DNA of 64,000 nt from an uncultured Eubacteriales bacterium (GTDB taxonomy: Bacteria > Bacillota > Clostridia > Oscillospirales > CAG-272), in assembly GCA_934467415.1 (NCBI GenBank), contig CAKSLQ010000003.1:77957-141956 (forward strand). Reading direction: 5' to 3'. Of the stretch, positions 4,468 through 62,034 are shown piece after piece. A model generated the notes under the pieces. It was not told the origin of the DNA. It made no database searches and worked only from the letters and a program-made list of their open reading frames with translations. Position numbers and translations under genes: made by a program. Each line of letters begins with the position of its first letter. Positions within the stretch are counted from its first letter, which is position 1.

Positions 4468-6870
4468 ATGAAGAGATTTACGAGAATCCTTGCAGGCGCA
4501 TGCGCGCTGCTGCTGGCGACCGGTTCGCTTACCGGCTGCTTCGGCAGCAAAAAGAAGCTGCCCGATAAGCAGACCGTTGACCATGTCTACAAGTACGAGC
4601 AGCGGGAGCTGTACAAGGTCGCACGCCCGGACGATGACAAGGACGTCACCGAGCGCGAGGACATCTACAACACGCTTTCCGATGTCAACGGCTATATGTT
4701 CCTCGTCTGCCGGTCGGATAAGGACTACAACGAGCTCGGCTACACGCTGCACTACGGCAAGTTTGACGGCGAGGACAAGTCGATAGAGCTGCCCGTGGCC
4801 GAGGATGCGGACAGCTATATCTCCTACGGCAGTTTTGCGCGCTTTGAGGATGGCTTTGCCCTGGTCGAGCAGCGCAACATCCTCATCGACAAGGAAAACT
4901 ATGTGTACGACCAGCAGTCCAATTTGCAGATCTACGACGAGAACGGCGTCTTGCAGTCGACCGTCGATCTGCGGAAGGCGTTCGGCATTCCGGACGACGG
5001 CTACATCAACGTCGAACGGGTGCTGCGGCATGACGATACGCTGTACCTGAGCTGTTACGGCGAAAGCGGAATGACCCTGCAGACGATGAGCCTCGACGGC
5101 ACGCTCGGCAAGACCGTCCCGGTCTTCCCGGACGGCACGGACGGCTACATGAACAACATGTTCTTCACGGCGGACGGCAAGATGATCGTCTGCGCGGACA
5201 TTTACGGCACGGACAGCTCAAAGCAGCTGATTATCACGCTCGACCTTGCCACCGGCGCGCGCACCGAGCTGGATACGAAAAACGACTACCGGCTGGGCAA
5301 TTCGCTGTTTGCGGGCCCCGACGGCACCTTCTACTGCTCGGATCAGAACGGTATCTACACCGTTGACCCGACGACGCTTGCAAAGACCGAGATCCTCAAC
5401 TACATCAACTCGGACTACATCTATAAATACAGCAATTTTACGATGCTGCCCGACGGCAGGATCGCCACCTTCAGAGGCAACTACAACCCGGGCGCCATGG
5501 CCTCGACCTACGCCGTCACCATCTTTACCAAGGTGCCGGACAGTGAGATTACGCCGAAGTACATCATCACGGTGGCGTCGGCGGGCTATGCCTACAATCT
5601 GCAGGAGCAGATCGTCAAGTACAACCTGGCCTCCGAGGAATACCGCATCAAGTATGTGGACTATTCGCAGTACAACACCGATGAGGACTACACGCTGGGG
5701 CAGACCCGCCTCGGCGACGACATCCTTGCGGGCAATGTGCCGGATGTGCTGATCGCCGACCAGCAGTTCTCGGTCTCGAAATACGTCAGCAAGGGGCTGT
5801 TTGCCGACCTCTACACCTTCATCGATAAGGATGAGAGCATGAAGCGCGAGGAATTCCTCGAAAATATCCTTGCCGGCTGTGAGATCGACGGCAAGCTCTA
5901 TGAGATCCCGACCAACTTCTATATTCAGGGGCTGATCGGTCCGAAGGAGACGATCGACACCTTCCGGGACCTCACCATCCGGGAGTTTGTTGACAAGCTC
6001 TCCACCCTGCCCGAGGGCGTGACCTTCTTCCGCGACGGCGACATCACCCGCGAGACCCTGCTGCAGATGCTGTTCCTCACCAACTATCAGAACTTCATCG
6101 ACCGCAAGACCGGCAAGTGCAGCATCAACAACGACGAGTGCCGCGCGCTGCTCGAATTTGCCAAGATGATGCCCGAAAAGAGTCTTTGGGACAGAGAAGG
6201 CTTCGATTCCTCCACGTTTGACTGGGACGCGTACAATAACATGTTCCGCGACGGCAAGGCGCTGGCGCAGGGGGTCTCCATCGGCGACTTCTCCGGCATC
6301 CGGGATTATGCCTACAGCTACGGGAAGGATACGGAGCTTGACTTCATCGGCTTCCCCGCGCCCGACCGTGCCGGCATGAGCTTCACCACGGCAAACCTCA
6401 AGTTCCTCGTCAGCGCAAAGGGCGCGTTCCCGGATGCGTCATGGGAATTCGTCAAGATTTTCCTTGCGGATGATTACCAGACCAACCAGTCCTGGGGCTT
6501 CCCGGTCAAGAAGGCCGCGCTCGACGCAAAGAAGCAGGCGATGCTCGACCAGATCAAGGAGAATGAGAAAAACCGGGACGAAGACGGCGACACGACGGGC
6601 GACGGCAACATCATCGGCGTGGCACGGGCGACGATGATCGACGATGTTTACTATGACGATGTTTACTATCGCCGCGAGGTGACCGCCGCGGATGTCGAGA
6701 CGGTCTACGGCTATGCCTGCACCGCCAAAAAGCAGTTTGTCTATGACACCAGCCTGTTCGACATCATCAACGAGGAGGCTTCCGCCTACTTCGCGGGGAC
6801 GAAAACACTCGACGAGATTCTCCCGCTGATGGAGAGCCGCATCACCATCTTCCTCTCCGAGGGAAGATAA
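4468..6870 (+). CDS. large lipoprotein: beta-propeller-like N-terminal half plus extracellular solute-binding (SBP family 1-like) C-terminal half
   Basis: Signal peptide with lipobox LTGC. C-terminal half has SBP-like sequence (PKYIITVASAGYAYNLQEQ..GNVPDVLIAD..GKLYEIPTNFY). Lies downstream of the ABC permeases. Confidence 0.7.
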   Translation: MKRFTRILAGACALLLATGSLTGCFGSKKKLPDKQTVDHVYKYEQRELYKVARPDDDKDVTEREDIYNTLSDVNGYMFLVCRSDKDYNELGYTLHYGKFDGEDKSIELPVAEDADSYISYGSFARFEDGFALVEQRNILIDKENYVYDQQSNLQIYDENGVLQSTVDLRKAFGIPDDGYINVERVLRHDDTLYLSCYGESGMTLQTMSLDGTLGKTVPVFPDGTDGYMNNMFFTADGKMIVCADIYGTDSSKQLIITLDLATGARTELDTKNDYRLGNSLFAGPDGTFYCSDQNGIYTVDPTTLAKTEILNYINSDYIYKYSNFTMLPDGRIATFRGNYNPGAMASTYAVTIFTKVPDSEITPKYIITVASAGYAYNLQEQIVKYNLASEEYRIKYVDYSQYNTDEDYTLGQTRLGDDILAGNVPDVLIADQQFSVSKYVSKGLFADLYTFIDKDESMKREEFLENILAGCEIDGKLYEIPTNFYIQGLIGPKETIDTFRDLTIREFVDKLSTLPEGVTFFRDGDITRETLLQMLFLTNYQNFIDRKTGKCSINNDECRALLEFAKMMPEKSLWDREGFDSSTFDWDAYNNMFRDGKALAQGVSIGDFSGIRDYAYSYGKDTELDFIGFPAPDRAGMSFTTANLKFLVSAKGAFPDASWEFVKIFLADDYQTNQSWGFPVKKAALDAKKQAMLDQIKENEKNRDEDGDTTGDGNIIGVARATMIDDVYYDDVYYRREVTAADVETVYGYACTAKKQFVYDTSLFDIINEEASAYFAGTKTLDEILPLMESRITIFLSEGR

Positions 6871-7083: not shown

Positions 7084-9534
7084 ATGAACAGACGTATACG
7101 GATGCTTGCAGGCGCGCTCGCGGCGGTGCTTGCCGCCGGCAGCCTTGCCGCCTGCGGCGAAAAGAAGCGGAAGCTGCCCGAAAAGCAGGTGCTTGACCAT
7201 GTCTACAAGTATGAGACGAAGACGCTTGCCACTTACGACGAGGTGAAGTGGGACGATGATGCCCAGAGAGATTTCAAGGGCTATACGGAGGTGCAGGACA
7301 CGGTGATCTCACCGGCGGGCTATGCCTACCGCACCGTCACCGTGGACAAGGATTACAACACCACGGCGCAGTCCGTCTCCTTCGGCCGATTTGACGGCAG
7401 CGATCCGGTGACGGTGGACAGCGTCCTGCCGACCGGCAACGGCGACTCGGTCTACTTTTCCGTCACGGCGGTCGTGCCGGAGGGGCTCGCCGCTGTCATG
7501 GACGAAAACCGCGTGGTCGGCGAGCAGAAGGTTGACGGCGAAACGGTTCCGATCTACGAGCGAAAAACCTATCTGCGCATCTTCGGCTTTGACGGCGAAA
7601 AGCTGTCCGAGACCGAGATCACCCCGGCGCTGTTCGGGCTGGCCGACCCGGGCGCAAACGGCTATTTCGGCGTGGGAAACCTCATCACCGACGGCAAGGA
7701 TCTGTACATGACCCTGCGCAGCGACAACACCGAGGCGACGGGCAAGCTCTTTCATCTCGGCGCGGACGGCAGCCCGAAGGAGCCGATCACTCTCGCGGAC
7801 GGCGGGGACTATTACTTCCAGTCGCTCTATTTCTTCGGCGAGGGCAAGCTGTTTGCGTCCTACTATGACCAGAGCGGCGGCGGCTCGGCGGCGTTTATCC
7901 TGGATATCGCGACCGGCAAGAAGACCAAGGTGGAAAGAGACAGCTTCCCCGGCGGCTATGCGGTGCTCTACAACTCCTTCGGCGGTCCGGACGGCATGTA
8001 TCTGTTTGACAGCACCGTCGGCGTGTACAAGCTGGATACCGACGCGATGACGCAGGAGATGGTCTGCAACTTCCTCAATTCGGATTTCATCTTCTCTTCG
8101 GGCAGCATGTCCTATTCCAATCTGCCGCTCGCGTCGCTCGGCGACGGCAGGTTTGCGGCACTGCGCAGCTCGACGAAAAAGGGAAAGACCTCGACACAGC
8201 TCAGCGTGCTGGAGCCTGCCGACCCCGCCGCGCTTCAGCCGAAGTACATCATCACGGTGGCGTCCGCGGGCTATGCGTACAATTTTGAGGAGCAGGTGGT
8301 CAATTTCAATCTCTCCTCGGACGAGTATCGTATCAAGTATGTCAATTACGGCACCTATAATACGACGGAGGATTACACGCTCGGCGTAAAGCAGCTCAAG
8401 GCGGACATCCTGGCCGGCAACGTGCCGGACATCCTGATCGCGGACGAGAGCTTCTCGGCGGCGGATTACATGAACAAGGGCGTCTTCGCCGATCTCTACA
8501 CCTATATCGACAAGGACGAGACCCTGACGCGGGACAAATTCCTGCCCAACATCCTTTCGGCGAGCGAGCTGAACGGTAAGCTCTATGAGCTGCCCACTTC
8601 CGTCTACATCTTCGGCATGATGGGCGAGAAGTCACGGGTCGCCGAATTCGGCGGGCTGACGATGCGTGAGTTTGCCGACAAGGTCGCGGCGCTCCCCGAC
8701 GGCGTGAAGTTCGTGCGCGATGGCGACAACACGCGCGACCAGATGCTGCGGATGCTGTTCTTCATCAACTATGCGGACTTTATCAACCGTGCCGACGCGA
8801 CCTGCGATTTCGACAACGACGATTTCCGTGCGCTGCTCGAATTTGTGAAGACCGTGCCCGAAAAGTTCATGCAGGACGACCCGAATTTCAATTCGGATAC
8901 CTTCGACTGGGACGCGTACAACAACATGTACAAGGAAGGCAAGGCGATCGCCCAGATCTCGGGTCTGACCGATTTCTTCGGCTTCGAGAACATGTCATAC
9001 ACCTTCGGCACGCTGGAGACCGACCTTGTCGGGCTGCCGTCGCGGGACAGAAACGGCTACGCCTTCAGCGCAACCCAGCTCAAATTCCTGCTCAGCGCCA
9101 AGAGCCCGTTTGCGGAGGAGGGCTGGAAGTTTATCCGGCAGTTCTTCACGGACGATGTGCAGACCTCGCTCGAATACGGCTTCCCGGTCACCGTGTCCGC
9201 GCTGAACGCGGCAAAGCAGGCGGCGCTCGACAAGATTGAGAAGCGCGCTGCCGAGCAGAAGGAAGGAACCGGCAAGGTCAACGGCTACATGGTCGGCGAC
9301 AACGGCGTGACCATCCCGATCTACGATCAGGGCACGCGGTATGAGACCGCCGCGGATGTGGAGCACATCTACGACATTGTGATGTCCGCAAAAAAGCCGC
9401 TCGGCTATGATGAAAGCATCTACAATGTCATCATGGAGGAGGCATCGGCGTATTTCTCCGGCGAGAAGAGCGTGGAGGAGGTCACCAAGCTGATTAACAA
9501 CCGGGTGGGGATCATCCTGACCGAAAACCGGTGA
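7084..9534 (+). CDS. large lipoprotein, paralogue of 4468-6870 (propeller-like N-half + SBP-like C-half)
   Basis: AAGGAG SD. Lipobox LAAC. Colinear with the upstream paralogue (KLPEKQVLDHVYKYE; PKYIITVASAGYAYNFEEQ; GNVPDILIAD; GKLYELPTSVY). Confidence 0.7.
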   Translation: MNRRIRMLAGALAAVLAAGSLAACGEKKRKLPEKQVLDHVYKYETKTLATYDEVKWDDDAQRDFKGYTEVQDTVISPAGYAYRTVTVDKDYNTTAQSVSFGRFDGSDPVTVDSVLPTGNGDSVYFSVTAVVPEGLAAVMDENRVVGEQKVDGETVPIYERKTYLRIFGFDGEKLSETEITPALFGLADPGANGYFGVGNLITDGKDLYMTLRSDNTEATGKLFHLGADGSPKEPITLADGGDYYFQSLYFFGEGKLFASYYDQSGGGSAAFILDIATGKKTKVERDSFPGGYAVLYNSFGGPDGMYLFDSTVGVYKLDTDAMTQEMVCNFLNSDFIFSSGSMSYSNLPLASLGDGRFAALRSSTKKGKTSTQLSVLEPADPAALQPKYIITVASAGYAYNFEEQVVNFNLSSDEYRIKYVNYGTYNTTEDYTLGVKQLKADILAGNVPDILIADESFSAADYMNKGVFADLYTYIDKDETLTRDKFLPNILSASELNGKLYELPTSVYIFGMMGEKSRVAEFGGLTMREFADKVAALPDGVKFVRDGDNTRDQMLRMLFFINYADFINRADATCDFDNDDFRALLEFVKTVPEKFMQDDPNFNSDTFDWDAYNNMYKEGKAIAQISGLTDFFGFENMSYTFGTLETDLVGLPSRDRNGYAFSATQLKFLLSAKSPFAEEGWKFIRQFFTDDVQTSLEYGFPVTVSALNAAKQAALDKIEKRAAEQKEGTGKVNGYMVGDNGVTIPIYDQGTRYETAADVEHIYDIVMSAKKPLGYDESIYNVIMEEASAYFSGEKSVEEVTKLINNRVGIILTENR

Positions 9535-9612
9535 CATTTGACCGGCGCAGACTGAATGGCGAAAGGGAAGTGGAATAAGGTTTTGCTGTCTGCATAGCTT
9601 CAAATATAAGTG

Positions 9613-9640
9613 GAAAAGCACCCGTAACGGGTGCTTTTCT
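9613..9640 (+). terminator. rho-independent terminator
   Basis: AGCACCCG-TAA-CGGGTGCT stem-loop followed by TTTTCT. Confidence 0.8.
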
Positions 9641-9730
9641 CCATATTGGAGTTGTTTTTCGCGGATTCTGCATCCGCCTGCGCCGGTCAAGGCGGCGGGG
9701 GTAGGCGATGTTTGCGCAAAAGGAAACAAA

Positions 9731-9778
9731 GCCTTCCCCAGTGGGGGAAGGTGTCGGCGGAGCCGACGGATGAGGTGT
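9731..9778 (-). repeat. solo HP-I arm (3'-arm type)
   Basis: GCCTTCCCC-AGTG-GGGGAAGG-T-GTCGGC-GGA-GCCGAC-GGATGAGGTGT. Nearly identical to the arm at 28513-28560. Confidence 0.8.
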
Positions 9779-9843
9779 TTCTCCTGCGCCGGGCAGACGG
9801 CGGGGTGGGGATTTTTTGCGGAAAGAAACGGGGACGCACATTT

Positions 9844-9985
9844 CCGGTAGGGGTCGGCGCCCTCGACGACCCGCGCTCACCTTAGTGCAGGCGGGTGATT
9901 CGTGAATCGCCCCTACGGGATTGCAAAGGTTTTCGCGCACCGCACACCATTTTCACCGTAGGGCGGGGGCTTGCTCCCGCCGCAA
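9844..9985. repeat. mosaic of shared intergenic modules
   Basis: CCGGTAGGGGTCGGCGCCCTCGACGACCCGC (9844-9874) is the reverse complement of pieces at 55485-55499, 55587-55598 and 61565-61582. GTAGGGCGGGGGCTTGCTCCCGCCGCA (9958-9985) recurs at 55622-55648. Confidence 0.75.
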
Positions 9986-10007
9986 ATGTACGCGGACAAC
10001 TCTTTTT

Positions 10008-10118
10008 ACCTCCCTCGGTGAGGGAGGTGGCACGGCAACGCCGTGACGGAAGGAGTCTTGCTCTCTGCAAAACTCCCCCAGTCACCTATCGGTGACAGCC
10101 CCCTCAGCGAGGGGGCTG
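10008..10118 (-). repeat. HP-II five-hairpin element, copy 1 (inverted relative to the other two)
   Basis: Reverse complement aligns end to end with 50671-50778 and 61613-61718. Five consecutive stem-loops. Confidence 0.85.
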
Positions 10119-10156
10119 AAAATATAACAACCATAGAGCGCCGTCTGCGCCCCTCC

Positions 10157-10185
10157 TTGACAACGGCATACGGATGCGGTACAAT
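10157..10185 (+). promoter_or_regulatory. sigma-A type promoter
   Basis: TTGACA, 17-nt spacer, TACAAT. Lies about 30 nt upstream of the ATG at 10216. Confidence 0.55.
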
Positions 10186-10215
10186 AGGGACATCAACAAA
10201 AAGAGAGGTGCGCGT

Positions 10216-10962
10216 ATGCAGGGGCAGGACAACGACAAGCTGACGCCGACGGCCGAGCCGGGCGGGAAATTCTTTCGCCGGCTCGACAACTTCTGGTATC
10301 ACAACAAGTGGAAGACCATCATCGTGAGCTTTCTGCTTCTGACGCTCATCGTCTGCGCCGTGCAGTTTGCGGGGCGCGAGGACGCGGACATCTACATCCT
10401 CTATGCCGGGCCGTACAAGTTCGGGCAGACCGACACGCAGAGCCTTGAGAGCGCGTTTTCCGCCGTGGCGGGCGACCGCGACGGCAACGGAAAGGTGCGC
10501 GTGGAGCTGATCGACCTCTATCTGATGTCGGACGAGCAGATTGAGGGCGCGGTCTCGTCCGCGCAGGTCGGCGGAGAGGGCGCGGTGGTCGTCAACTACG
10601 AGATGTTCAGGAGCAACCGCACCGCGTTTGACCAGCAGATTCTCGCGGGCGACGTGGTGATCTGCCTGCTCGACCCGTGGCTGTATGCCGATGTGCGGGC
10701 GGCGGACGGCTTTCTGCCGCTGGCCGACGCGCTGGGCTACACGCCGGAGAACGCCGTGGACGAATACGCCGTCCGCATCGGCGACACGCCGCTCGGCAGC
10801 TATTTTTCGGTGCTGCGCGGGCTGGATCGCGACACGCTGCTCTGCGTGCGCCGCATGAGCAGCTTCTCCTTCCTCAAGGGGCAGACCCGCACCGAGAAAT
10901 ATTACAGCTACTGCCTCGACACCTTTAAGAAGATTTTTACCTTCGAAGCGCCGACGGAATAA
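10216..10962 (+). CDS. hypothetical membrane-anchored protein
   Basis: ATG 10216 (MQGQDNDK..). Single TM (TIIVSFLLLTLIVCAVQF) followed by an extracytoplasmic domain. No family recognised. Confidence 0.6.
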   Translation: MQGQDNDKLTPTAEPGGKFFRRLDNFWYHNKWKTIIVSFLLLTLIVCAVQFAGREDADIYILYAGPYKFGQTDTQSLESAFSAVAGDRDGNGKVRVELIDLYLMSDEQIEGAVSSAQVGGEGAVVVNYEMFRSNRTAFDQQILAGDVVICLLDPWLYADVRAADGFLPLADALGYTPENAVDEYAVRIGDTPLGSYFSVLRGLDRDTLLCVRRMSSFSFLKGQTRTEKYYSYCLDTFKKIFTFEAPTE

Positions 10963-11068
10963 GCCTCCCTTGTGTAAAGGGAGTGTGTCCCGAAACGCAA
11001 GCGTTCCTAATGAGTTTCCCTTGCGGGAAACATCATCGCCGACGGAGGGATTGTTTTGTATGGAACAA

Positions 11069-11116
11069 CCCCTCAGTCACCTGACGGTGACAGCTCCCCT
11101 TGCACAGGGGAGCCTG
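11069..11116 (-). repeat. half HP-II element (hairpins 1-2 plus CTGAGGGG)
   Basis: CCCCTCAG-TCACC-TGAC-GGTGA-CAGCTCCCC-TTGCAC-AGGGGAGC. Reverse complement matches the left half of HP-II and the GGCTCCCCTGTGCAAGGGG module. Confidence 0.7.
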
Positions 11117-11142
11117 CATAGCAGGTTTACTCAAAGCCCCCG

Positions 11143-11172
11143 TTTTCGGGGGCTTTTCTCTTGCAAGGCGGG
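11143..11172 (+). terminator. rho-independent terminator
   Basis: AAAGCCCCC / GGGGGCTTT 9-bp stem with a 6-nt loop and a T-rich tail. Confidence 0.7.
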
Positions 11173-11189
11173 GCGAAACGTGTTATACT
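11161..11189 (+). promoter_or_regulatory. sigma-A type promoter
   Basis: TTGCAA, 17-nt spacer, TATACT. Upstream of the ABC exporter pair. Confidence 0.5.
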
Positions 11190-11222
11190 ATTGAAGTTAA
11201 ATTCATCAAACGGAGATTTCGG

Positions 11223-19796: not shown

Positions 19797-21629
19797 TTAT
19801 TCTACGGTGACGCTCTTGGCAAGGTTGCGGGGCTTGTCGATGTCGCAGCCGCGCGCCGCCGCGACATGGTAGGCCAGCAGCTGGAGCACGGTGGCAAGCG
19901 GGATCGCCGCAAAGAGCGGGTCGCAGTCCGGGATGCAGAGCACACGCTCCGCCTCGTCCGCGGCGTGTTCGGCGTCGCGGCGGGTAATCAGCAGTACCCG
20001 GGCGCCGCGCGCCTTGACCTCGCGGATGTTGCTGATCATCTTTTCGTAGAGCGCCTCGTCGGTCGCAAGTGCGATGACCGGCATCTGATCGGTGATCAGC
20101 GAGATCGTGCCGTGCTTGAGTTCGCCTGCGGCGTAGGCCTCGCTGTGGATGTAGGAGATCTCCTTCAGCTTGAGCGAGCCCTCCATCGAGAGATAGTAGT
20201 CGAGGCCGCGGCCGATGAAGAAGAGGTCCTCGTAGTGTGCAAAGTCGGCGGCCGCCGCCTTGATTGCATCCTCGGTTTTCAGCGTCTCCTCGATGACGCG
20301 GGGCATGTCGCGGTAGAGCTTCTCGGTGTAGGCGCGCGCCTCCGCCTCGCTGAGGCGGCCGCAGAGCAGCGCCATGCGGATGGTGAGCAGATAGATCAGC
20401 GAGATCTGCACGGTGTAGGCCTTGGTGGAGGCGACCGAGATCTCGGGGCCTGCCCAGGTGTAAATCACATTGTCCGCCTCGCGCGCGATGGACGAGCCGA
20501 TGACGTTGACGATGCCGAGCGTGTAGGCGCCGCGGGATTTTGCCAGGCGGAGCGCCGCCAGCGAGTCGGCGGTCTCGCCCGACTGGGAGATGATGATGAC
20601 GAGGTCGTCGGGCGTGAGGATCGGGTCGTTGTAGCGGAACTCGGACGCGATCTCCACCTTGACGGGGATGCGGCAGAGGCGCTCGATCGCCGCCTTGCCG
20701 ACGAGACCGGCGTGCATCGCCGTGCCGCAGGCGACAAACGTCACGCTCTTGGCGCGGCGCAGCCGCTCGTCCGAGAGATGCTCACCCTCAAAGTCGGGCA
20801 GCATCCCCGCGATGCGCGGGTGCAGCGTCTTTTCGACGGCGGCGGGTTCTTCGTTGATCTCTTTGATCATGAAGTGCGGGTAGCCGCCGCGCTCCGCCGC
20901 CTCGACCGACCAGTCGGCGGTCATCATCTCGGGGTGCAGGGGGCGCTTGTCGATGTCCATGATCTCGATGCTGTGTGCCGTGACGACCGCCATTTGCAGG
21001 TCGCCGAGCGGATAGTAGTTTTTCGTGTGGCGCAGCACCGCCGCGATGTCCGAGGCGATGAAGTTTTCGCCCTCGCCGACGCCGACGATCAGCGGATTGT
21101 CTTTTTTGATGGCGTAGAGCCGGTCGGGCGTGTCGGCAAACAGCACGGCGATGGCGTAGGAGCCGACCATCTCGCGCATGACGGCGGAGAGGGCGCTCAG
21201 GTGGTCGCCGCATTCGCGGTAGCGCAGGTCAATCAGCTTTGCCGCGACCTCGGTGTCGGTCTCCGAGGAGAAAGTATAGCCTTTTTCAAGGAGCATTTTG
21301 CGGAGCGCGGCATAGTTTTCAATGATGCCGTTGTGGACGATCTGCACCCGTTCGTTGCCGTGGGGATGTGAGTTTGCGTCCGAGGGCGCGCCGTGTGTTG
21401 CCCAACGGGTGTGCCCGATGCCGACCTGCGCGCCGGCAAAATTGCCGACGGCGGCGAGCTTTGCCTCGAGCGCGGCGACCTTGCCGACCGCCTTGGTGAC
21501 CTCAATGCCGCCGTCTTTGTAAACCGCGATGCCCGCGGAGTCGTAGCCGCGGTATTCGAGCGCGTGCAGCCCCTCCAGAATAATCTTCGCTGCTTCCTTC
21601 TGACCGATGTAACCGGTGATTCCGCACAT
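19797..21629 (-). CDS. glmS: glutamine--fructose-6-phosphate aminotransferase
   Basis: Starts MCGITGYIG (catalytic Cys2). SIS domains. Ends ..AKSVTVE. The ORF-track start at 21641 is rejected in favour of the ATG at 21629. Confidence 0.95.
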   Translation of the reverse strand: MCGITGYIGQKEAAKIILEGLHALEYRGYDSAGIAVYKDGGIEVTKAVGKVAALEAKLAAVGNFAGAQVGIGHTRWATHGAPSDANSHPHGNERVQIVHNGIIENYAALRKMLLEKGYTFSSETDTEVAAKLIDLRYRECGDHLSALSAVMREMVGSYAIAVLFADTPDRLYAIKKDNPLIVGVGEGENFIASDIAAVLRHTKNYYPLGDLQMAVVTAHSIEIMDIDKRPLHPEMMTADWSVEAAERGGYPHFMIKEINEEPAAVEKTLHPRIAGMLPDFEGEHLSDERLRRAKSVTFVACGTAMHAGLVGKAAIERLCRIPVKVEIASEFRYNDPILTPDDLVIIISQSGETADSLAALRLAKSRGAYTLGIVNVIGSSIAREADNVIYTWAGPEISVASTKAYTVQISLIYLLTIRMALLCGRLSEAEARAYTEKLYRDMPRVIEETLKTEDAIKAAAADFAHYEDLFFIGRGLDYYLSMEGSLKLKEISYIHSEAYAAGELKHGTISLITDQMPVIALATDEALYEKMISNIREVKARGARVLLITRRDAEHAADEAERVLCIPDCDPLFAAIPLATVLQLLAYHVAAARGCDIDKPRNLAKSVTVE

Positions 21630-21685
21630 GGTATGACACAATACGGCATACGGGCGCTCATCCCCCGCTGCCGTCTCAATTCTTA

Positions 21686-21852
21686 AAGTATTCTGCGTAT
21701 CCTCCGTGTTGTCGGACGGTTACCCGTCGGTTTTGCCGGAAGATGCGGCGGCAGTCCGCCGTCGGAGCATCCGCCGAATGGGCAGGCGAGCCTGCCGCTC
21801 TCGATAACTCCGATCCTCGTTAACCGCGCGGTGCGCGGTCTGGCGCTAAAGG
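21686..21852 (-). ncRNA. glmS: glmS ribozyme (GlcN6P-activated)
   Basis: The minus strand reads ..UUU-AGCGCCAGACCGCG..GGUUAACGAGGAUCGGAGUUAUCGAGAGCGG..UUCGGCGGAUGCUCC.., matching the conserved glmS core and cleavage-site context. Lies directly 5' of glmS. Confidence 0.9.
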
Positions 21853-21934
21853 CGCGGCACATGTGCCGACGCCCTTTTCATGAGCGTATATTTTCTGCGG
21901 CTCCGCCGCGGAAAAACAAAATATGAAATCCCGT

Positions 21935-28383: not shown

Positions 28384-28512
28384 TGCCGCAAGCCGACTTG
28401 CTTGATAATCATAAAGCGGCGCCGTCTTGCGGCAAGTCTGTACAAAATCTGCTGTGCCGTGGACGCAGCCATTGACAAAGTGTATATGTGAAGTGTAATG
28501 CTTGCGCTTATA

Positions 28513-28985
28513 GCCTTCTCCAGTGGGAGAAGGTGGCGGCGCAGCCGTCGGATGAGGTGTTTACGACAGCTGCAAGCTGTCGTAATCCAAGCACAGCTTG
28601 TCCAGTATATCTGCGGTTACAGAACCGAAGTTTTTGCGGATACTATCATTGGAATAACGAAGCACAGTAATCCCCCACAGGGCAAGCTTCTCATCTCTTT
28701 GTGCATCAGTTTGTACATGTGCATCGGACAGATGCTGTTTTCCGTCTACTTCAATCGCTATTTTTTTCTCTGCAATATAAAAGTCCAGAATATAGTTTTC
28801 AATATTGTGTTGACGCCTCACATTGCAGGGAAGTTTTTTCAGAAAGTCATACCAAAGATGCTTTTCTTCCGGTGTCATATTTTTACGAAGCGTTCGCGCG
28901 TTTTGGACAAGCTTTTTATTATATGGCAGCATGGCTACTCCTCATCCACCGCTGACGCGGTCCCCCTTCTCCCGCAGGAGAAGGC
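28513..28985 (-). mobile_element. candidate selfish element: DUF559 endonuclease ORF bracketed by double-hairpin inverted arms (HP-I, full-length form)
   Basis: Arms at 28513-28560 and 28938-28985. Each reads GCCTTCTCC-N4-GGAGAAGG, then a second hairpin, then GGATGAGG, in inverted orientation. The interior is visibly AT-rich compared with the flanks. The same arms occur without an ORF elsewhere in the window. Confidence 0.55.
28561..28932 (-). CDS. DUF559 domain endonuclease (Vsr-like PD-(D/E)XK fold)
   Basis: ..NYILDFYIAEKKIAIEVDGKQH..RDEKLALWGITVLRYSN.. is the typical DUF559 core. SD GAGGAG lies 5 nt before the ATG. Confidence 0.8.
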   Translation of the reverse strand: MLPYNKKLVQNARTLRKNMTPEEKHLWYDFLKKLPCNVRRQHNIENYILDFYIAEKKIAIEVDGKQHLSDAHVQTDAQRDEKLALWGITVLRYSNDSIRKNFGSVTADILDKLCLDYDSLQLS

Positions 28986-29018
28986 TTTTTTAGTTGTTCG
29001 GCAAAGCTTGTTCGCCCC

Positions 29019-34550: not shown

Positions 34551-34652
34551 CCGTACAGCGGGATGCGGAATACGCACCGCAGGGCAAAGCCCTTTCGTCC
34601 GCTCCGCAACTCCCCGTCGGGGCGGCACTGTACGCGCGCATTCCTACTCTGT
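34551..34652 (-). promoter_or_regulatory. THF (tetrahydrofolate) riboswitch aptamer
   Basis: The minus strand reads ACAGAGUAGGAAUGCGCGCGU..GGGGAGUUGCGGAGCGGACGAAAG..CUGCGGUGCGUAUUCCGCAUCCCGCUGU. This matches the conserved AGAGUAG / GCGU / CGCGGUG / GCAUCCGCU elements of the THF-I class. Located 5' of folT. Confidence 0.8.
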
Positions 34653-34716
34653 AATTTAATCAGTTGAAAAATTCTGTTCTTCAACTGCCGACTCTATTAT
34701 AGTCGCTTTCTGCGGC

Positions 34717-36683: not shown

Positions 36684-36812
36684 GGCTCCCCTGTGCAAGG
36701 GGGTGAGTTGTACGAGACACAAAAGCGTCTCGCGGAGTTTTTCTTCGTCGGCTAAACACCGACGATTTCGCGAGCGAAACCGAAAAACATCCTGACGCAG
36801 TTGACTGAGGGG
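36684..36812 (-). repeat. intergenic module mosaic (GGCTCCCCTGTGCAAGGGG module, ~60-nt shared module, half HP-II)
   Basis: The reverse complement of ~36735-36798 matches 55499-55557 almost base for base. GGCTCCCCTGTGCAAGGGG recurs at 50608 and, inverted, at 11091. Confidence 0.75.
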
Positions 36813-36816
36813 TTGT

Positions 36817-37782
36817 TCACCGCAGGGCTATTTTTTCCTTGCGGACGTCCTCGCCGCAGAAGACGAGGGGGGTATATTCGCCGAACAGGCGGGAGGCGAT
36901 GCGCTCGCCGTAGCGGTCGGTCAGCTCTTTCGCCGACAGGTTGGTGCTCATGACGGTCGGCAGACCGCGCACGAGGCGCGTGTTGATGATGTCGTAGAGG
37001 CAGGCGGTGGTGAACGTGCCGCCGAGCTCTGTGCCGAGATCGTCGAGGATCAGCAGCTCGACCGTAAGATAGCGGTCGGTATCGTCCGCGCCGTCGTGAA
37101 ACCGTGCGTTTTCAAACGCGGAGAAGACATGCATCGCCGAGTCGTACAGCACGTCAAAGCCGCGGTCGATGACCGTCTTGGCGATCGCGCTGGACAGATG
37201 CGTCTTGCCGAGCCCCGTACCGCCGAGAAAGAGCAGCGACGGGCCGTTTTTCGGTGAAAAGTCCTGCGCGAAGCTTTGCGCCGCCTCGAAATTGTGCTTC
37301 ATGCGGGAGTAGGCCTCCGGGTCGCGCTTGTAGTAATCGAGCGAAAACGTGCCGAAGGACTGCGTGGCGATCAGCCGCGCGACGCCCGCCGACTCGTAAC
37401 CGCGCAGGGTGAGCGCCCGGCGGAAGCAGGCGCACATTTTTGTGCCGACAAAGCCGGTATCGCCGCAGGCGGTGCATTCGTAGTGCACATCGGCGTAGTC
37501 GGCGGGGTAACCGGCATTCTTCAAAAGCTCGACCATGGCCAGCCGCATGTCCACGGTCTCCTGCTTGATCTTGGCGATGCGTTCATCCAGTCCCTCGCGC
37601 CCCTCCAGCGCCGCGCCCATGATGCGGCTTGCCGTCGTGGCGAGTGCCGCGTCAAGCTCGGCGTAGCCGGGCAGCTTTCGCCGCAGCTCTTCCTTGCGGG
37701 CATCGGCCTTTTCGATGGCGCGGAGCGGCTTTTCGGCATACTCTTCGCGGAGCTTATAGTAATTCTCGTTGTTGTAGCTCAT
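36817..37782 (-). CDS. DnaC/DnaI-like helicase loader ATPase
   Basis: Zn-ribbon-like CTACGDTGF..CACF and Walker A GGTGLGKTHL. Paired with a DnaD-domain gene. Confidence 0.75.
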   Translation of the reverse strand: MSYNNENYYKLREEYAEKPLRAIEKADARKEELRRKLPGYAELDAALATTASRIMGAALEGREGLDERIAKIKQETVDMRLAMVELLKNAGYPADYADVHYECTACGDTGFVGTKMCACFRRALTLRGYESAGVARLIATQSFGTFSLDYYKRDPEAYSRMKHNFEAAQSFAQDFSPKNGPSLLFLGGTGLGKTHLSSAIAKTVIDRGFDVLYDSAMHVFSAFENARFHDGADDTDRYLTVELLILDDLGTELGGTFTTACLYDIINTRLVRGLPTVMSTNLSAKELTDRYGERIASRLFGEYTPLVFCGEDVRKEKIALR

Positions 37783-50557: not shown

Positions 50558-50592
50558 AAAAGGGAACGAACGGAAAGTTCGTTCCCTTTTGT
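50558..50592 (+). terminator. rho-independent terminator
   Basis: 13-bp stem AAAGGGAACGAAC / GTTCGTTCCCTTT followed by a T-tract. Confidence 0.85.
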
Positions 50593-50670
50593 GTTGATGT
50601 GTTTTTCGGCTCCCCTGTGCAAGGGAGGCAAAGAGAGATTGCGCACGGTGCGAGAAATCGGTTCATCTTT

Positions 50671-50778
50671 CAGCCCCCTCGGTGAGGGGGCTGTCACCGA
50701 TAGGTGACTGGGGGAGTTTTGCAGAGAGCAAGACTCCTTCCGTCGCCGTTCGGCGACACCTCCCTCACCGAGGGAGGT
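50671..50778 (+). repeat. HP-II five-hairpin element, copy 2
   Basis: CAGCCCCCT..AGGGGGCTG, TCACC-GATA-GGTGA, GGAGTTTTGC..GCAAGACTCC, GTCGCC-GTTC-GGCGAC, CCTCCCT..AGGGAGG. Confidence 0.85.
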
Positions 50779-50861
50779 AAAAAGAGTAGTTCGTGCAAAG
50801 ATTGCGGCGGGAGAGAGCCACCCCTCCATGCGGTTAAAGTCTTTTCTGTCTTCCTGAATCC

Positions 50862-53192
50862 TCACTGCACATAATCGAGCGCGGTGTCGTCGGCAGGGAC
50901 AAACGCAATCCACGCGATGTCAATGCCGTCGCCCACCTTTGCCTGCAAGCCGTCGTAGGGGTCGATGCGCAGGGTCTTCAGCTTGCCGAAGAAGCCGTCC
51001 GCCGCCGAGAAGTCCACGAGCGCGACATGCCATTCTCCGTCGGTTGCAAGCGCGCCCATCGTCAGATGCGCCGCCGTGTAGGCATAGGCTTCGTCATCGC
51101 CCGCGCAGTAGTACAGCCCGAGTCTGCTGCTCTCTCCGTGGTTGCGGTAGCAGATCAGCATCTGCTTGTTTGCATCTGCGTCGGTCTCGCCGAGCACCAG
51201 CGAAACATAGGGGTCGTAATTGTCGGTGATGCGCAGGGCAGCGTAGCCGTCCTCCGCCGTGACGGCAAGGCCGTTTGCGCCGTCAAATACCGTCCCGACA
51301 AGCGTCTTGTCCGCAAAGTCGAAGAAGGTCTGCGGCGCGTTTTCGCGCACAGGCGGCTTTGCATCGACGACCGAGGCGGGCGCACCGTCCGCAAGCGGGG
51401 GCTTTTCGCCGCTTGCAAAAGTGACATCCAGCCACGTGTTCGCGTCATAGAGGTCGGCGGCGTCGATGCTGTCGCGCGTCAGCGCATCGGCGTCGCCGTC
51501 GGCGTTGTAAAGGACATAGTTGACCTTCAGACTGCCGCGGTTTTCAAGCCCGATGGACGCAAGGTCCACGGCGATTTCGGTGACGATGCCCTCCGTGAGG
51601 ACAGTGGACGCCGCCGTGAATTTACCCTCCGCCGCCGCAAAGGCCGCGCCGATGCCGGACTCCATCGTGACCTCACCCGCCGCGTCCACGACAAGACGGT
51701 AGGCCTTGCCCGCCGTGTCCGCGAGGTAAACGGCGGTGCGGTCGTGCGCGGTCAGGCTGTCATCCCGCCGCTCGATGAGGAGGTAGAGCGTGTTTTTGTC
51801 CTTCGCGTAGCGGAAGGTTGCCTGCGCCTGCGAGGCGCTGCCGATGAAGTGCGCGTCGGTCACGCCTGCCCAGTCGTCGCTGTTTTTGCCGTCGGTGCAG
51901 ACGGCGCGGTCGGCGGCGGGAATGGCGTGGTTGAGATAGAAGTTTTCAATCAGGATCGCGTTGCCGTCCTGGCTGGAGATGGCGGGGTAGACTGCGGTCA
52001 GGCGATTTGCGCCCGTGACCTCGATCGAGCCCCAGTAGCCCGATTTGCCGAAGGCGAGAATCGGCTCGCCGATATTGCGCGCGCTGCCGTCGGCAACACG
52101 CAGGCAGTAGTCATTGCTTCTGCCGTAGCCGATGATGACCTCGCCGCTCGGCATCTTGCGGATGTAGGGCGCCGCGCCGACAAAAAGATTGCTCTGCCGG
52201 TCGGCAGGACCGGTCTTGTCATAGTCCGGCGCATCCGACCACGCCGCGTCCGAATAGATAATCGAGATGTGGAACTTTTTGTCCGCGTCCTTGGATTCGC
52301 AGACGGCGGCAAGCGACCCGTCGTACAGCTCGGTGACGACGCTCATCTGGTCGGTGAAGCTGGGCGAGCCCTCCACGTCGAGGACGTACTGCTGGAAGGC
52401 GATCTTCGCCTGCCACGGCGCTTCGGTGACGTTCGGCGTCCAGGTATAGCCGCCGTCGGTCGAGGAAATCATCGCCGTGCCCGTCGAGTTGCGGTCCTCC
52501 TTCAGCCCCCAGCGCGCGATGCCGGGCGAAACCTGCGAGAAGAAAATCTGGATCTCGCCGCTTGACAGCTCGATGATGGAAGGCTCCCAGTTGACGCCCT
52601 TGTAGATCGAGGTCTCGGTGCTCCAGGTGCGGCCGCCGTCGGTCGAACGGCGCAGATAGATGCCCGCGAGCTCCGGATAGTCACGGTACTTCTCCTTGTT
52701 GCGGTAGGAGGTGACGGCGAGGATGTCGCCGTTTTGCAGCACGACGGCGTCACAGTTGACAAAGTAGGTCACGCCCGCGCCGTTTGGCAGGCGCTCGTCC
52801 TTGTAGCGGTAGAGCTCCGCGTTGTAAAGCACCTCGGGCGCTTCCCAGTGCACAAGATCTTTGCTGTGTGCATAGTAGATATGCGGACCGTAGGTGGCAT
52901 ACTGGAAGAAGAGGATGTAGCTGCCGTCTGCCTTCTTCTTGAGGCGGGGATACTGCGCCTTGATATAGCGCGGCTCGCCCGTGGTGTCGTCGGACAGCTC
53001 GATATAGCTGCGCGCGTCGCCTTCAAGATAGGCGAGCGTCTCGGCTTCGGCATAGGCATTCTCGGCGACGGCGTTCAGGTCGTCGGCTGAGGTCAGCAGG
53101 GCTTCGCCGCTCGACGGCACGGTTTTGCCGCAGGCGGCAAGTGCCAGCGCAAGCGCTGCGGCGGCAAGCAGGGAAAGGGCGATTTTTTTCAT
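50862..53192 (-). CDS. BNR/Asp-box repeat (sialidase-fold) lipoprotein with C-terminal accessory domains
   Basis: Lipobox LAAC. Asp-boxes STDGGRTWS and STDGGYTWT. GGAGGA SD. Confidence 0.7.
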   Translation of the reverse strand: MKKIALSLLAAAALALALAACGKTVPSSGEALLTSADDLNAVAENAYAEAETLAYLEGDARSYIELSDDTTGEPRYIKAQYPRLKKKADGSYILFFQYATYGPHIYYAHSKDLVHWEAPEVLYNAELYRYKDERLPNGAGVTYFVNCDAVVLQNGDILAVTSYRNKEKYRDYPELAGIYLRRSTDGGRTWSTETSIYKGVNWEPSIIELSSGEIQIFFSQVSPGIARWGLKEDRNSTGTAMISSTDGGYTWTPNVTEAPWQAKIAFQQYVLDVEGSPSFTDQMSVVTELYDGSLAAVCESKDADKKFHISIIYSDAAWSDAPDYDKTGPADRQSNLFVGAAPYIRKMPSGEVIIGYGRSNDYCLRVADGSARNIGEPILAFGKSGYWGSIEVTGANRLTAVYPAISSQDGNAILIENFYLNHAIPAADRAVCTDGKNSDDWAGVTDAHFIGSASQAQATFRYAKDKNTLYLLIERRDDSLTAHDRTAVYLADTAGKAYRLVVDAAGEVTMESGIGAAFAAAEGKFTAASTVLTEGIVTEIAVDLASIGLENRGSLKVNYVLYNADGDADALTRDSIDAADLYDANTWLDVTFASGEKPPLADGAPASVVDAKPPVRENAPQTFFDFADKTLVGTVFDGANGLAVTAEDGYAALRITDNYDPYVSLVLGETDADANKQMLICYRNHGESSRLGLYYCAGDDEAYAYTAAHLTMGALATDGEWHVALVDFSAADGFFGKLKTLRIDPYDGLQAKVGDGIDIAWIAFVPADDTALDYVQ

Positions 53193-55361: not shown

Positions 55362-55365
55362 GGGC

Positions 55366-55781
55366 GGGAACGCGCAAACCGCACGGGGGCTTACTCCCGC
55401 CGTCCGAACCCAATCTGACTTTGGCTCCTCCTGACGGGGGAGCTGTCGCCGTAGGCGACTGAGGGAGAGATAACGCAAAGCAAGGCGGGTCGTCGAGGGA
55501 TGTTTTTCGGTTTCGCTTTGCGAAATCGTCGGTGTTCAGCCGACGAAGAAAAACTCCTTAGGAACACATCGTGTTCCGGGGGTCATGACCCCTACCGGAT
55601 TGTACAAAAGACGCACACACTGTAGGGCGGGGGCTTGCTCCCGCCGCACCTGCTCATACAAAACAATCATTCCCCGGTTGTTATTTTACTTTGCAAAAGA
55701 CACCTCATCCGTCGCCGTTCGGCGACACCTTCCCCCGCTGGGGAAGGCAAAGAACGCGGGTGACCGTACCGTTCTAACCAA
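55366..55781. repeat. dense mosaic of intergenic hairpin modules
   Basis: Contains a half HP-II (55423-55468), the ~60-nt shared module (55499-55557), GTAGGGCGGGGGCTTGCTCCCGCCGCA (55622-55648) and a solo HP-I 3' arm (55700-55748). Confidence 0.8.
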
Positions 55782-55944
55782 GCCTTCCCCCTTGGGGGAA
55801 GGTGGCGTGTAATACGCCGGATGAGGGGTAGCCATTCGTCAGAATGGCGTCTCACAGCACAGAACGAGACTGCGCAGACGGATGCTTACGCATCCTACCC
55901 CTCATCAGTCAACTCCGTTGACAGCTTCCCCCAAGGGGGAAGCC
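55782..55944. repeat. HP-I miniature (gene-less, symmetric arms)
   Basis: A and B hairpins, then GGATGAGGGGTA, then three small hairpins, then TACCCCTCATC followed by B' and A' hairpins. Confidence 0.85.
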
Positions 55945-56117
55945 AAAAGACGCTTTGCGTCTCGTACGGCTCTCCCCACCGGGGAAGCCTAAGGGCGAAG
56001 AGCGCTTTCTTCTCCGCTTCCCGCAAACAACCCGCCGGAAACGGCGTATTTTTTGTATTTACTTGCCGGGCGGCGGATGCTATGATTGAAATAGGAAAAA
56101 ACGCGGAGGAAACCGAC

Positions 56118-58752: not shown

Positions 58753-61380
<2,628 letters not shown>

Positions 61381-61420
61381 AGGTAATAAGGTAGGAAATG
61401 CAGGGCGGCGCGTTCTCCAA

Positions 61421-61559
61421 GCCTTCCCCTTGGGGGAAGGGGGACCGCACCCGCGGTGGATGAGGGATTGCAGGCAGCAGGCACAGCATTGTGTGATGCT
61501 TTGCTTGCATCAATCCCTCATCAGTCGCCTACGGCGACAGCTTCCCCAATGGGGAAGCC
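61421..61559 (+). repeat. HP-I miniature (gene-less, with 5'-arm and 3'-arm polarity like the DUF559 copy)
   Basis: Left arm ..GGGGAAGG-GGG-ACCGC-ACCC-GCGGT-GGATGAGGGATT. Right arm AATCCCTCATC-A-GTCGCC-TAC-GGCGAC-A-GCTTCCCC-AAT-GGGGAAGC. Confidence 0.85.
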
Positions 61560-61612
61560 TAAGAGGCGCCGACCCCTACCGGGTTTGTGGAGAATCTGCA
61601 CAATCTGTCTTT

Positions 61613-61718
61613 CAGCTCCCTCGGTGAGGGAGCTGTCGCCGAAGGCGACTGAGGGAGTTTTGCTCTGAGCGAAACTCCTTCCACCGCTGGCGCGGTCCCC
61701 CTCCCTCAATGAGGGAGG
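61613..61718 (+). repeat. HP-II five-hairpin element, copy 3
   Basis: Colinear with 50671-50778. Stems differ by paired substitutions. Confidence 0.85.
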
Positions 61719-61761
61719 TATAATTACTGTCCATCCCATCGAATTAAATTTCAAAAAACAC

Positions 61762-61790
61762 TTGACAAGCTATATCCGATTTCGTATAAT
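61762..61790 (+). promoter_or_regulatory. consensus sigma-A promoter for rpmH
   Basis: TTGACA, 17-nt spacer, TATAAT. Confidence 0.7.
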
Positions 61791-61992: not shown

Positions 61993-62034
61993 TGAGCCGC
62001 TTTCTGCCTCGCTCCCCACGGGAGTTTCAAATCT

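Follow-up and report, generated by a model that had tools for sequence, protein, structure and literature searches.

A palindromic intergenic repeat in a gut Clostridia genome and its probable kinship with the ends of a DUF559 nuclease cassette

HP-II is a five-hairpin element of about 110 nt that occurs in three copies in a 64,000-nt stretch of DNA from an uncultured Eubacteriales bacterium (lineage CAG-272, Oscillospirales; GenBank assembly GCA_934467415.1, contig CAKSLQ010000003.1, positions 77,957 to 141,956 of the forward strand). This whole stretch is called the window below. Each HP-II arm is a unit of ~58 nt, and two units are joined tail-to-tail. Because the same tail-to-tail unit brackets a DUF559 nuclease gene here and in other Clostridia, we regard HP-II as one of the non-autonomous members of a dispersed family of extragenic repeats, with the nuclease cassette as the full-length form. 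It would thus be comparable to miniature inverted-repeat transposable elements (MITEs) or to REPINs, the doublets of repetitive extragenic palindromic (REP) sequences. We assign this reading a probability of about 0.6. That HP-II is a dispersed DNA repeat related to the cassette ends and not a dedicated RNA is highly probable; that the DUF559 protein propagates the gene-less units is a tentative proposal which, on balance, we rather doubt.

The original prediction, made from the letters of the sequence, had described three copies of HP-II with a constant architecture and stem-preserving substitutions, located between genes and not followed by a U-tract. All three ~110-nt copies were recovered at the predicted positions (Table 1), and their alignment has a mean column identity of 86%. 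The pattern of the central hairpin, GGAGTTTTGC-N3-7-GCRARACTCC, occurs three times in the window, versus 0.00 occurrences expected from 100 shuffles. For copies 1, 2 and 3, the minimum free energy (MFE) of the RNA is -72.2, -85.1 and -67.2 kcal/mol, which corresponds to z-scores against shuffles of -7.75, -10.08 and -6.69. The MFE fold of copies 1 and 3 matches the predicted five-hairpin architecture exactly, on either strand. Since HP-II as a whole forms an imperfect palindrome (arms of 55 nt, 76% complementarity), copy 2 favours a single long hairpin as its MFE structure. No T-run follows any of the window copies, and a terminator scan reported none of the HP-II hairpins; the terminators that it did report are separate. 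When the whole window was searched against Rfam 15 at the gathering score, only THF and glmS were found and HP-II had no match, and a search of region 9600-11200 at E <= 10 gave chance-level matches only. Readings of HP-II as an attC/integron site, a CRISPR or a terminator were ruled out on architecture.

Substitutions were compared among six full copies, i.e. the three in the window, one from a scan of a genome collection (L023) and two from a scan of metagenomes (L153 and L156). The RNAalifold consensus of these copies is the five-hairpin fold with 42 pairs. Stems 1 to 3 carry paired changes, as had been claimed: one pair of hairpin 1 alternates between C-G and U-A (three copies each), one pair of hairpin 2 alternates between A-U and G-C (5:1), and hairpin 3 has double-sided changes at three pairs. 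The central stem contains G.U to A-U shifts only, with zero compensatory changes, and hairpin 4 is unchanging save for its closing pair.

The unit consists of a pyrimidine-rich hairpin A (8-9 bp), a linker of 1-3 nt, hairpin B (5-6 bp) and a purine-rich tail with the sequence GGATGAGG, GGAAGGAG or TGRGGGAG. The central hairpin of HP-II is formed by two such tails plus a few bases, paired together. The conserved single-stranded part of the unit is this 3' tail, the 5' flank being merely T- or A-rich. An alternative structure in which the tail would pair with the 5' arm of hairpin A was dropped, as the substitutions do not line up.

A covariance-model scan had been proposed as a check on HP-II. 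R1, our model of the unit, whose training set of window units included both the HP-II halves and the window cassette units, finds 16 units in the window, eight per strand; no further match over the full length exceeds 15 bits. Six spacers with a combined length of 3127 nt (4.9% of the window) contain all 16, and none lies in coding DNA, so that the claimed intergenic location holds for the family as a whole. The units are arranged as singlets, as head-to-head pairs and as seven adjacent tail-to-tail pairs. The gaps between the latter measure 1 nt in each of the three HP-II copies and 34, 57, 219 and 366 nt in the others. Two half elements of HP-II that had been pointed out, at 11069-11116 and 55423-55468, are genuine units (R1, 47.0 and 54.3 bits). 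The first of them, however, is part not of HP-II but of another type of dimer, whose central stem differs.

Further support for the stems comes from 30 distinct units of this and related genomes. In their alignment, 87% of the stem cells are paired (73.7% in shuffles) and 66 stem cells show double-sided changes (23 +/- 5 in shuffles); none of 500 shuffles attained either value and slid controls were far lower, although these statistics overstate the support because the alignment is model-fitted and the sequences are related. Hairpin B is hypervariable, with many different sequences that are all paired. The forward strand folds slightly better in 25 of the 30 units (Wilcoxon p 3e-5), a bias to which we attach little weight because a single basal G.T pair in hairpin A accounts for much of it.

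The 366-nt gap contains the DUF559 gene, which together with its two flanking units makes up the cassette. The tail of the 5' unit, GGATGAGGAG, stops 5 nt ahead of the ATG and looks like the ribosome-binding site of the gene; the tail of the 3' unit is the reverse complement of the 5' tail. The gene has a GC content of 0.41 in a genome of 0.62. A structure model of the protein (predicted local distance difference test, pLDDT, 78.9) has the catalytic domain of the homing endonuclease I-Bth0305I (3R3P) as its nearest solved fold, with E 3.2e-5 and a template-modelling (TM) score of 0.78 on the target, followed by the DUF559 structure 3HRL and then by Vsr (E 7e-3). A homology search yielded 4806 homologues at E <= 1e-10, the best 120 of which are 71-99% identical. 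Most of these best-listed homologues are located on contigs of 0.5-3 kb, which would fit assembly breaks at flanking repeats.

Flanking units are found by R1 at DUF559 homologues in six of six other contexts, which makes seven contexts including the window. The homologues are 90% identical with the same synteny as in the window (P0122), 73% identical between a methyltransferase gene and folD (P0234), 73% identical between a HAD hydrolase gene and dxs (P0181), 74% identical between a histidine-phosphatase gene and padR (P0165), and 60% and 50% identical on two IMG/VR contigs (L217 and L218). In five of these six contexts the forward unit ends at or just ahead of the start codon and the reverse unit overlaps the stop codon; in L218 the upstream unit is only partial, and the downstream one, at the end of the contig, is a direct and not an inverted copy. 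Hairpin A is all but constant from cassette to cassette, while the DUF559 proteins differ by up to 30%. On contig L217, a gene-less tail-to-tail dimer with its own central hairpin is located 70 nt downstream of the cassette; it has the five-hairpin architecture with a different sequence.

R1 cannot decide whether HP-II and the cassette are kin, because it was trained on both. We therefore rely on an independent model, R2, which was built solely from cassette flanks of other genomes. In the window, R2 detects the cassette units at 69 and 64 bits and six gene-less units at 22-59 bits. It also matches the right halves of all three HP-II copies over the full length and in the correct orientation (20.4, 18.7 and 16.3 bits; E 7e-5 to 2e-3). 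In direct alignment, the right half of copy 3 and the cassette 5' unit share 68% identity (z 6.8, 0 of 300 shuffles), and in the block AGGGGGACCGCGCCAGCGGTGGA, which comprises linker, hairpin B and the start of the tail, 23 of 24 positions match, the common block being AGGGGGACCGCG[C/T]CAGCGGTGGA. The right halves of copies 1 and 2 are 61-62% identical to the cassette 3' unit (z ~4). Gene-less units moreover retain bases past the tail that are specific to the cassette of this lineage, namely GTAGCCAT, which reaches as far as the start codon, and TGTTT behind the stop. The unit at 55777 has GGATGAGGGGTAGCCAT where the start of DUF559 has GGATGAGGAGTAGCCATG (16 of 17 positions up to the start codon), and the tail of the unit at 9726, GGATGAGGTGTTT, is the sequence that follows the DUF559 stop. 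By R2 matches, direct alignments and junction bases, the family thus forms a graded series that runs from the cassette ends over gene-less units and dimers to the right halves of HP-II and finally to its left halves, the last step being drawn from the internal palindrome.

Table 1. Coordinates of HP-II copies, units, cassette and adjoining repeat sequence in the window (R1, R2: covariance models, see text)
Feature	Position	Strand	Remarks
HP-II copy 1	10008..10118	-	five-hairpin tail-to-tail dimer; terminator 9613-9639 to one side, promoter-like 10157-10185 to the other
right half of copy 1	10002..10063	+	hairpin A, hairpin B, tail GGAAGGAG; R1 54.0 bits; R2 18.7 bits, E 3e-4
left half of copy 1	10065..10123	-	tail TGGGGGAG; R1 61.1 bits; R2 no match
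HP-II copy 2	50671..50778	+	convergent-gene spacer, AMP-binding enzyme gene / BNR-domain gene
left half of copy 2	50666..50724	+	R1 61.1 bits
right half of copy 2	50726..50784	-	R1 64.9 bits; R2 16.3 bits, E 2e-3
HP-II copy 3	61613..61718	+	spacer alaS (58753-61380) / rpmH promoter (61762-61790)
left half of copy 3	61608..61665	+	R1 68.9 bits
right half of copy 3	61667..61724	-	R1 48.9 bits; R2 20.4 bits, E 7e-5
DUF559 endonuclease-like gene	28561..28932	-	123 aa; Pfam PF04480, E 5e-27
unit at DUF559 3' end	28508..28565	+	R1; R2 64.3 bits; overlaps stop codon
unit at DUF559 5' end	28932..28990	-	R1; R2 68.8 bits; tail GGATGAGGAG
single unit	9726..9783	+	R1, R2; tail GGATGAGGTGTTT as at cassette 3' junction
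unit of variant dimer	11060..11118	-	R1; central stem GAGGGGTTGTT/AACAATCCCTC
single unit	55418..55475	+	R1; second of the two predicted half elements
unit	55695..55753	-	R1, R2
unit	55777..55834	+	R1, R2; tail/junction GGATGAGGGGTAGCCAT
unit, tail-to-tail partner of 55777-55834	55892..55949	-	R1; 57-nt gap between
left half of gene-less dimer	61416..61473	+	R1; 34 nt from partner
right half of same gene-less dimer	61508..61565	-	R1; partner of 61416-61473
extension of copy 1 (AAAAAGAGT...GCGGCGGGAG...)	9954..10007		part of neighbouring repeat module; common to copies 1, 2, L023, L153 and L156
extension of copy 2	50779..50834		same module; sequence matches

Outside the species of the window, at least three further full copies of HP-II exist (L023, L153 and L156; three loci, two of them alike), so that the prediction withstands the outcomes that had been named in advance as refuting it. 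They are 84-89% identical to the window copies, and their gene contexts are unrelated, with flanks that do not match the window. L023 is the sole true copy among the matches listed from the genome collection, which was scanned with the central-hairpin pattern and yielded mostly perfect-palindrome terminators, chiefly of Treponema. The metagenome scan with a stricter pattern gave 38 loci, of which L153 and L156 are the only true copies and the others are one conserved coding site or chance matches; HP-II was not found in the viral contigs scanned. Given so few matches, either full HP-II is rare or the scan pattern was too narrow.

Related genomes were reached through AlaS homologues, which delivered the orthologous alaS-rpmH regions of the same genome (L158, 100%), of a sister species (L159-L163, 90.1% nucleotide identity over 21 kb) and of a more distant relative (L164-L167, AlaS 83% identical). 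The alaS-rpmH spacer of the sister species contains no HP-II and has different repeat modules, with the rpmH promoter region nearly unchanged and unique flanks that align. HP-II is likewise missing from its AMP-binding/BNR spacer, although the unique flanks align there, too. Over the shared 22 kb, there are 12 units in this genome versus none in the sister species at E < 0.001. In the more distant relative, the rpmH site carries one single unit. A fixed position and orientation beside a conserved gene, the mark of a cis-regulatory element, was thus not found across these relatives, and the presence/absence variation between species at ~90% identity is of the kind expected of MITEs. The unit family behaves as a turning-over population of repeats and not as a conserved regulatory RNA.

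Several observations suggest that the cassette itself may be mobile, selfish or dispensable. Closely related DUF559 genes occur in at least four different gene neighbourhoods, they have a GC content of 0.36-0.41 in hosts of 0.43-0.62, and in five of five gene tables they are co-directional with the preceding gene and located at most 138 nt downstream of it. One relative that is 91.6% identical up to the stop codon of the neighbouring gene lacks the whole cassette (L214), whereas relatives of 89.5% and 87.6% identity carry it. The borders of this empty site (87% species) are imprecise and it contains no dimer. Three other candidate sources of an empty site were rejected: in a species with a 62%-identical neighbouring gene synteny is lost, in a 64% species the contigs end at an unrelated hairpin, and in an 83% species they end inside the 5' unit.

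A number of findings weigh against our interpretation. Left halves of HP-II were not detected by R2 in the window, and their direct alignment with the cassette units is weak (z 1.5-3.3), so that their membership would follow from palindromic symmetry with the right halves and from R1, which was trained on them. No DUF559 remnants were found by tblastn inside any gene-less dimer of the window. The single empty site looks like loss rather than gain of the cassette. At the rplA locus, DUF559 is syntenic and ~90% identical between the sister species, and the family is strongly conserved and subject to strong purifying selection; these properties would suit a resident gene of the host no less than a mobile gene. 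Mobility is suggested by the differing loci alone. The flanks of the six full HP-II copies share T/A runs only, and no convincing target-site duplication was found in them; an 8-bp direct repeat around copy 2, AGATTGCG, lies outside the element and is unsupported elsewhere. Strain-level polymorphism of HP-II was not seen in nine contigs of 98-100% identity, whose only differences are small indels within coding repeats and a single indel of 1 nt in a stem. Finally, the gene tables inspected for a transposase cover only part of the genome.

The original prediction implied a structured RNA or an element of untranslated regions. A non-coding or cis-regulatory RNA (an element of the 3' or 5' untranslated region or a small RNA) with hairpins selected for RNA function would account for the very stable predicted folds (z -6.7 to -10), the compensatory changes in the stems, the three G.U pairs that the central stem has on one strand only and the better folding of the forward strand in 25 of 30 units; in addition, copy 3 could be co-transcribed with alaS, after which no terminator was detected. 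Context and distribution do not support this explanation, and we consider it quite improbable. In contexts of the same kind, copy 1 has the opposite orientation to copies 2 and 3; it lies past a canonical terminator and before the next promoter, while copy 3 is located ahead of the rpmH promoter. HP-II is missing from the orthologous spacers of the ~90% species and of the AlaS-83% relative, it has no Rfam match even at E 10, and few further full copies are among the scan matches listed. The palindrome folds nearly equally well on both strands, and the unit of which it is a dimer recurs as the inverted termini of the cassette. Even less can be said for DNA or RNA structures that are selected by the host and have no selfish component, such as terminators, protectors of mRNA 3' ends, protein-binding sites or insulators. 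All clusters are found downstream of gene 3' ends or between convergent genes, and co-option of REP sequences for host roles is known (PMC3337134), but the stems are not followed by a T-run, canonical terminators exist separately from them, and the content of the spacers is wholly different between 90%-identical species.

The remaining alternatives accept a dispersed repeat and differ in the part that DUF559 plays. HP-II could be a classical REP/REPIN moved by a REP-associated tyrosine transposase (RAYT, an HUH Y1 transposase) encoded elsewhere, and DUF559 would then be a foreign gene at which repeats have merely piled up. Several traits of HP-II and its units are indeed those of REPINs (PMC3337134, PMC3116915): inverted doublets outside genes with a short distance between the halves, singlets, clusters of alternating orientation and the ability to form a long hairpin. 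Random pile-up, however, does not predict the precision with which the units adjoin the start and stop codons of DUF559 in all contexts but L218, in hosts of 43-62% GC; there is no conserved 5' motif of the GTAG type, and no Y1_Tnp gene was found in gene tables covering ~22 kb of this genome and related loci. We judge this explanation improbable. The gene-less dimers might also be immobile relics of old cassette insertions from which the open reading frame was deleted, with no present propagation. This would explain the cassette junction bases in some gene-less units, the absence of strain-level polymorphism at 98-100% identity and both the empty site and the frameshifted DUF559 allele described below. 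It is nonetheless unlikely in view of 16 units versus one gene in the window, of dimers that hold no remnant of the reading frame, and of arrangements such as single units, pairs in head-to-head orientation and dimers whose central stems are unrelated. The unit counts over 22 kb, 12 here versus zero in the sister species, suggest lineage-specific amplification instead, given that both carry the cassette. The relation could also be reversed: the palindromic dimers would be the natural target of DUF559, a homing endonuclease gene standing on its own, which would cleave an empty dimer in the middle and be copied into the break during repair. In favour of this, the position of the gene between two tails corresponds exactly to that of the short spacer or hairpin in gene-less dimers, the closest solved structure is a homing-endonuclease catalytic domain, and the gene is AT-rich in GC-rich hosts and has the co-directional placement described above. 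I-Bth0305I carries an extra DNA-binding domain, which the 123-aa DUF559 protein lacks. In addition, the sole empty site found has no dimer, and there is one gene copy per ~64 kb despite seven potential target dimers. We consider homing improbable, too.

The reading of HP-II as a non-autonomous relative of the cassette would place its action at the level of DNA, effects on transcripts being secondary. Copies would accumulate and turn over in spacers downstream of genes, and stems would persist since the folded or palindromic form of the DNA gets recognised or copied. Template-directed correction within palindromes could be an alternative source of paired changes, without selection. A DUF559 gene between two inverted units would use one tail as its ribosome-binding site and propagate or maintain the gene-less copies. 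By analogy with MITEs and their parents or REPINs and the flanks of RAYT genes, we infer that cassette ends gave rise to the gene-less copies. The tentative part of the proposal, as stated above, is that the DUF559 nuclease, and not another enzyme or plain recombination, propagates or maintains them.

The closest known system is the REPIN-RAYT system, in which inverted doublets of an extragenic palindrome and many gene-less copies coexist with a single-copy, vertically inherited nuclease-type gene flanked by repeats (PMC3116915, PMC3337134, PMC5581495). The HP-II family resembles it in consisting of short extragenic palindromes, either single or in inverted doublets that can fold into a long hairpin, and in having many gene-less copies and so far one small nuclease-type gene flanked by inverted repeats. 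The DUF559 gene is syntenic between related species and the repeat load varies between close species, as it does there. The differences are that the flanked gene encodes a PD-(D/E)XK nuclease of the Vsr/EDxHD fold and not an HUH Y1 transposase, that the unit has two hairpins and a tail which doubles as the putative ribosome-binding site of DUF559, that a GTAG motif is missing, and that the host is a Gram-positive gut bacterium of the Clostridium class.

BOX, RUP, Correia/NEMIS and bcr1 of Bacillus are MITEs or modular intergenic repeats of Gram-positive bacteria or Neisseria; intergenic repeats of this sort have been surveyed (PMC2267715). HP-II shares with them a non-coding length of ~100 nt, terminal inverted repeats and a strong secondary structure, and its family is intergenic, mosaic and variable between relatives, with a longer, gene-carrying form that has the same ends. 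In contrast to MITEs, no convincing target-site duplication was found and the gene-carrying form encodes no known transposase; a hairpin B that is hypervariable yet paired is a further difference from these repeats. The best structural matches of the DUF559 model, I-Bth0305I (EDxHD, PDB 3R3P) and Vsr (1VSR/1CW0), make a selfish, site-specific nuclease activity plausible, but the identity is 25% and DUF559 is a bare 123-aa domain that is not inside an intron or host gene. The ends of IS200/IS605 elements and palindrome-associated transposable elements (PATEs) have subterminal hairpins that are recognised as folded single strands, with non-autonomous derivatives and no target-site duplication. 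Unlike the units, those ends are not inverted copies of each other and their enzyme is an HUH transposase, none of which was seen in the gene tables here.

A second DUF559 gene next to a dispersed repeat is ycjD of E. coli K-12 (L216, NC_000913.3 1351000-1351830). A hairpin repeat with a polypyrimidine stem overlaps its stop codon, and a second copy follows 170 nt downstream, after a partial duplication of the ycjD 3' end. This repeat is probably boxC, which was originally described near envM/fabI. It is dispersed, with a median of 15 places per genome in 5426 E. coli genomes, and boxC is listed with 32 copies (PMC2267715). The start of ycjD lies within a hairpin whose 3' arm, GAATGAGGTG, resembles the Clostridial tail. 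Unlike the HP-II units, no inverted pair brackets ycjD, and R1 detected no homology at this locus (E >= 1), so that the parallel is one of analogy and not of homology. It is unlikely that ycjD adjoins a repeat of 15-30 copies by chance. In the open-access literature (subscription journals lay outside its scope) we found nothing that links DUF559 or ycjD to flanking repeats and no paper joining REPIN, RAYT and Firmicutes.

The HP-II copies are embedded in spacers of mixed content, and their orientation relative to the flanking genes varies, that of copy 1 being opposite to that of copies 2 and 3. The terminator in front of copy 1 is a canonical one and belongs to a solute-binding-protein gene (7084-9534). 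Copy 2 is located downstream of a bidirectional terminator (50558-50590), between the AMP-binding enzyme gene, which ends at 50548, and the BNR-domain gene (50862-53192, minus strand). No terminator was detected by the scan between alaS and copy 3, and the rpmH promoter 3' of copy 3 matches the consensus at 12 of 12 positions. A further ~50-60 bases past hairpin 4, shared by copies 1, 2, L023, L153 and L156, had been overlooked in the prediction; the extended matches comprise 149-177 nt with 84-89% identity. HP-II elements stand in mosaics with other repeat modules.

A second repeat family, CCCCTACGG...CCGTAGGGCGGGGGCTTGCTCCCGCCGC, adjoins units in the same spacers (9893-9987, 50790-50835, 55360-55401, 55585-55650 and 61573-61606) and abuts four of the six HP-II copies. 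Its core, GGCGGGAGnnAGCCnCC, occurs four times exactly and seven times with up to two mismatches, versus 1.3 expected. A third module, GGAGTTTTTCTTCGTCGGCTAAACACCGACGATTTCGC, is found at 36699-36818 and 55498-55557, the two window copies being 97% complementary; it is 88% identical to L023 5742-5863, a stretch adjoining HP-II, and appears to be inserted in place of the unit's hairpin B in L023 and L159. Repeat clusters also affect gene calling. Spurious open reading frames were called over them at 61521-61754 (minus strand) and at L158 12769-12987, yielding short 'hypothetical proteins' made of repeats, and at L164 3470-4639 the call of a real miaA gene is extended across repeats.

Around the cassette, a promoter-like sequence (TTGACA-16-TGTAAT, 28473-28503, read by eye) lies outside the 3' unit and points antisense into the DUF559 gene; its -35 box is not kept in the sister species (L168). 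L168, L169 and L170 (3372-3860) encode an identical DUF559 protein and have spacers of 240, 317 or 483 nt towards rplA, the difference consisting of a duplicated ~60-nt block and alternative terminator segments, not units. One co-assembly (L219 3001-3339; P0125) contains a DUF559 allele that is frameshifted by a 23-nt tandem duplication and is either a pseudogene or an assembly artefact; an internal deletion was ruled out as the cause of this truncated allele. Elsewhere in the window, Rfam identified a THF riboswitch (34554-34653, minus strand, 94 bits) and a glmS ribozyme (21689-21858, minus strand, 63.9 bits) upstream of the gene at 19797-21641. Two tandem paralogues of a ~800-aa solute-binding protein (4468-6870 and 7084-9534) are 69-84% identical in blocks, offset by ~2685 nt. 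The gene order rpmH-rnpA-yidD-yidC-jag-trmE (61858-64000; L158 13106-17741) suggests that the window is near the replication origin; the cumulative GC skew climbs over most of the window without a switch.

HP-II itself is a fairly ordinary kind of object, a REP/MITE-like intergenic palindromic repeat, and dispersed palindromic repeats are common in bacterial genomes. The interest lies in the consistent embedding of a DUF559 nuclease gene between two units. To our knowledge, an associated enzyme is known for one class of such repeats only, REP/REPIN with RAYT, and none for boxC; we also know of no REP-like system from Clostridia. DUF559 proteins, a large Vsr-like family, might be the cognate enzymes of dispersed hairpin repeats, i.e. 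of two-hairpin units and dimers in gut Clostridia and of boxC with YcjD in E. coli, in a second, mechanistically different partnership of the REPIN-RAYT kind. This generalisation is speculative, and we think it less likely to hold than to fail. If the units do depend on the DUF559 gene that they bracket, a widespread domain of unknown function would gain a testable role, a nuclease of a different fold would mark a second, independent origin of the partnership between a repeat and a single-copy nuclease, and the spurious short 'hypothetical proteins' over repeats in gut Clostridia would be explained. Even without the link to DUF559 there is a consequence for annotation, as HP-II is not to be filed as an RNA gene.

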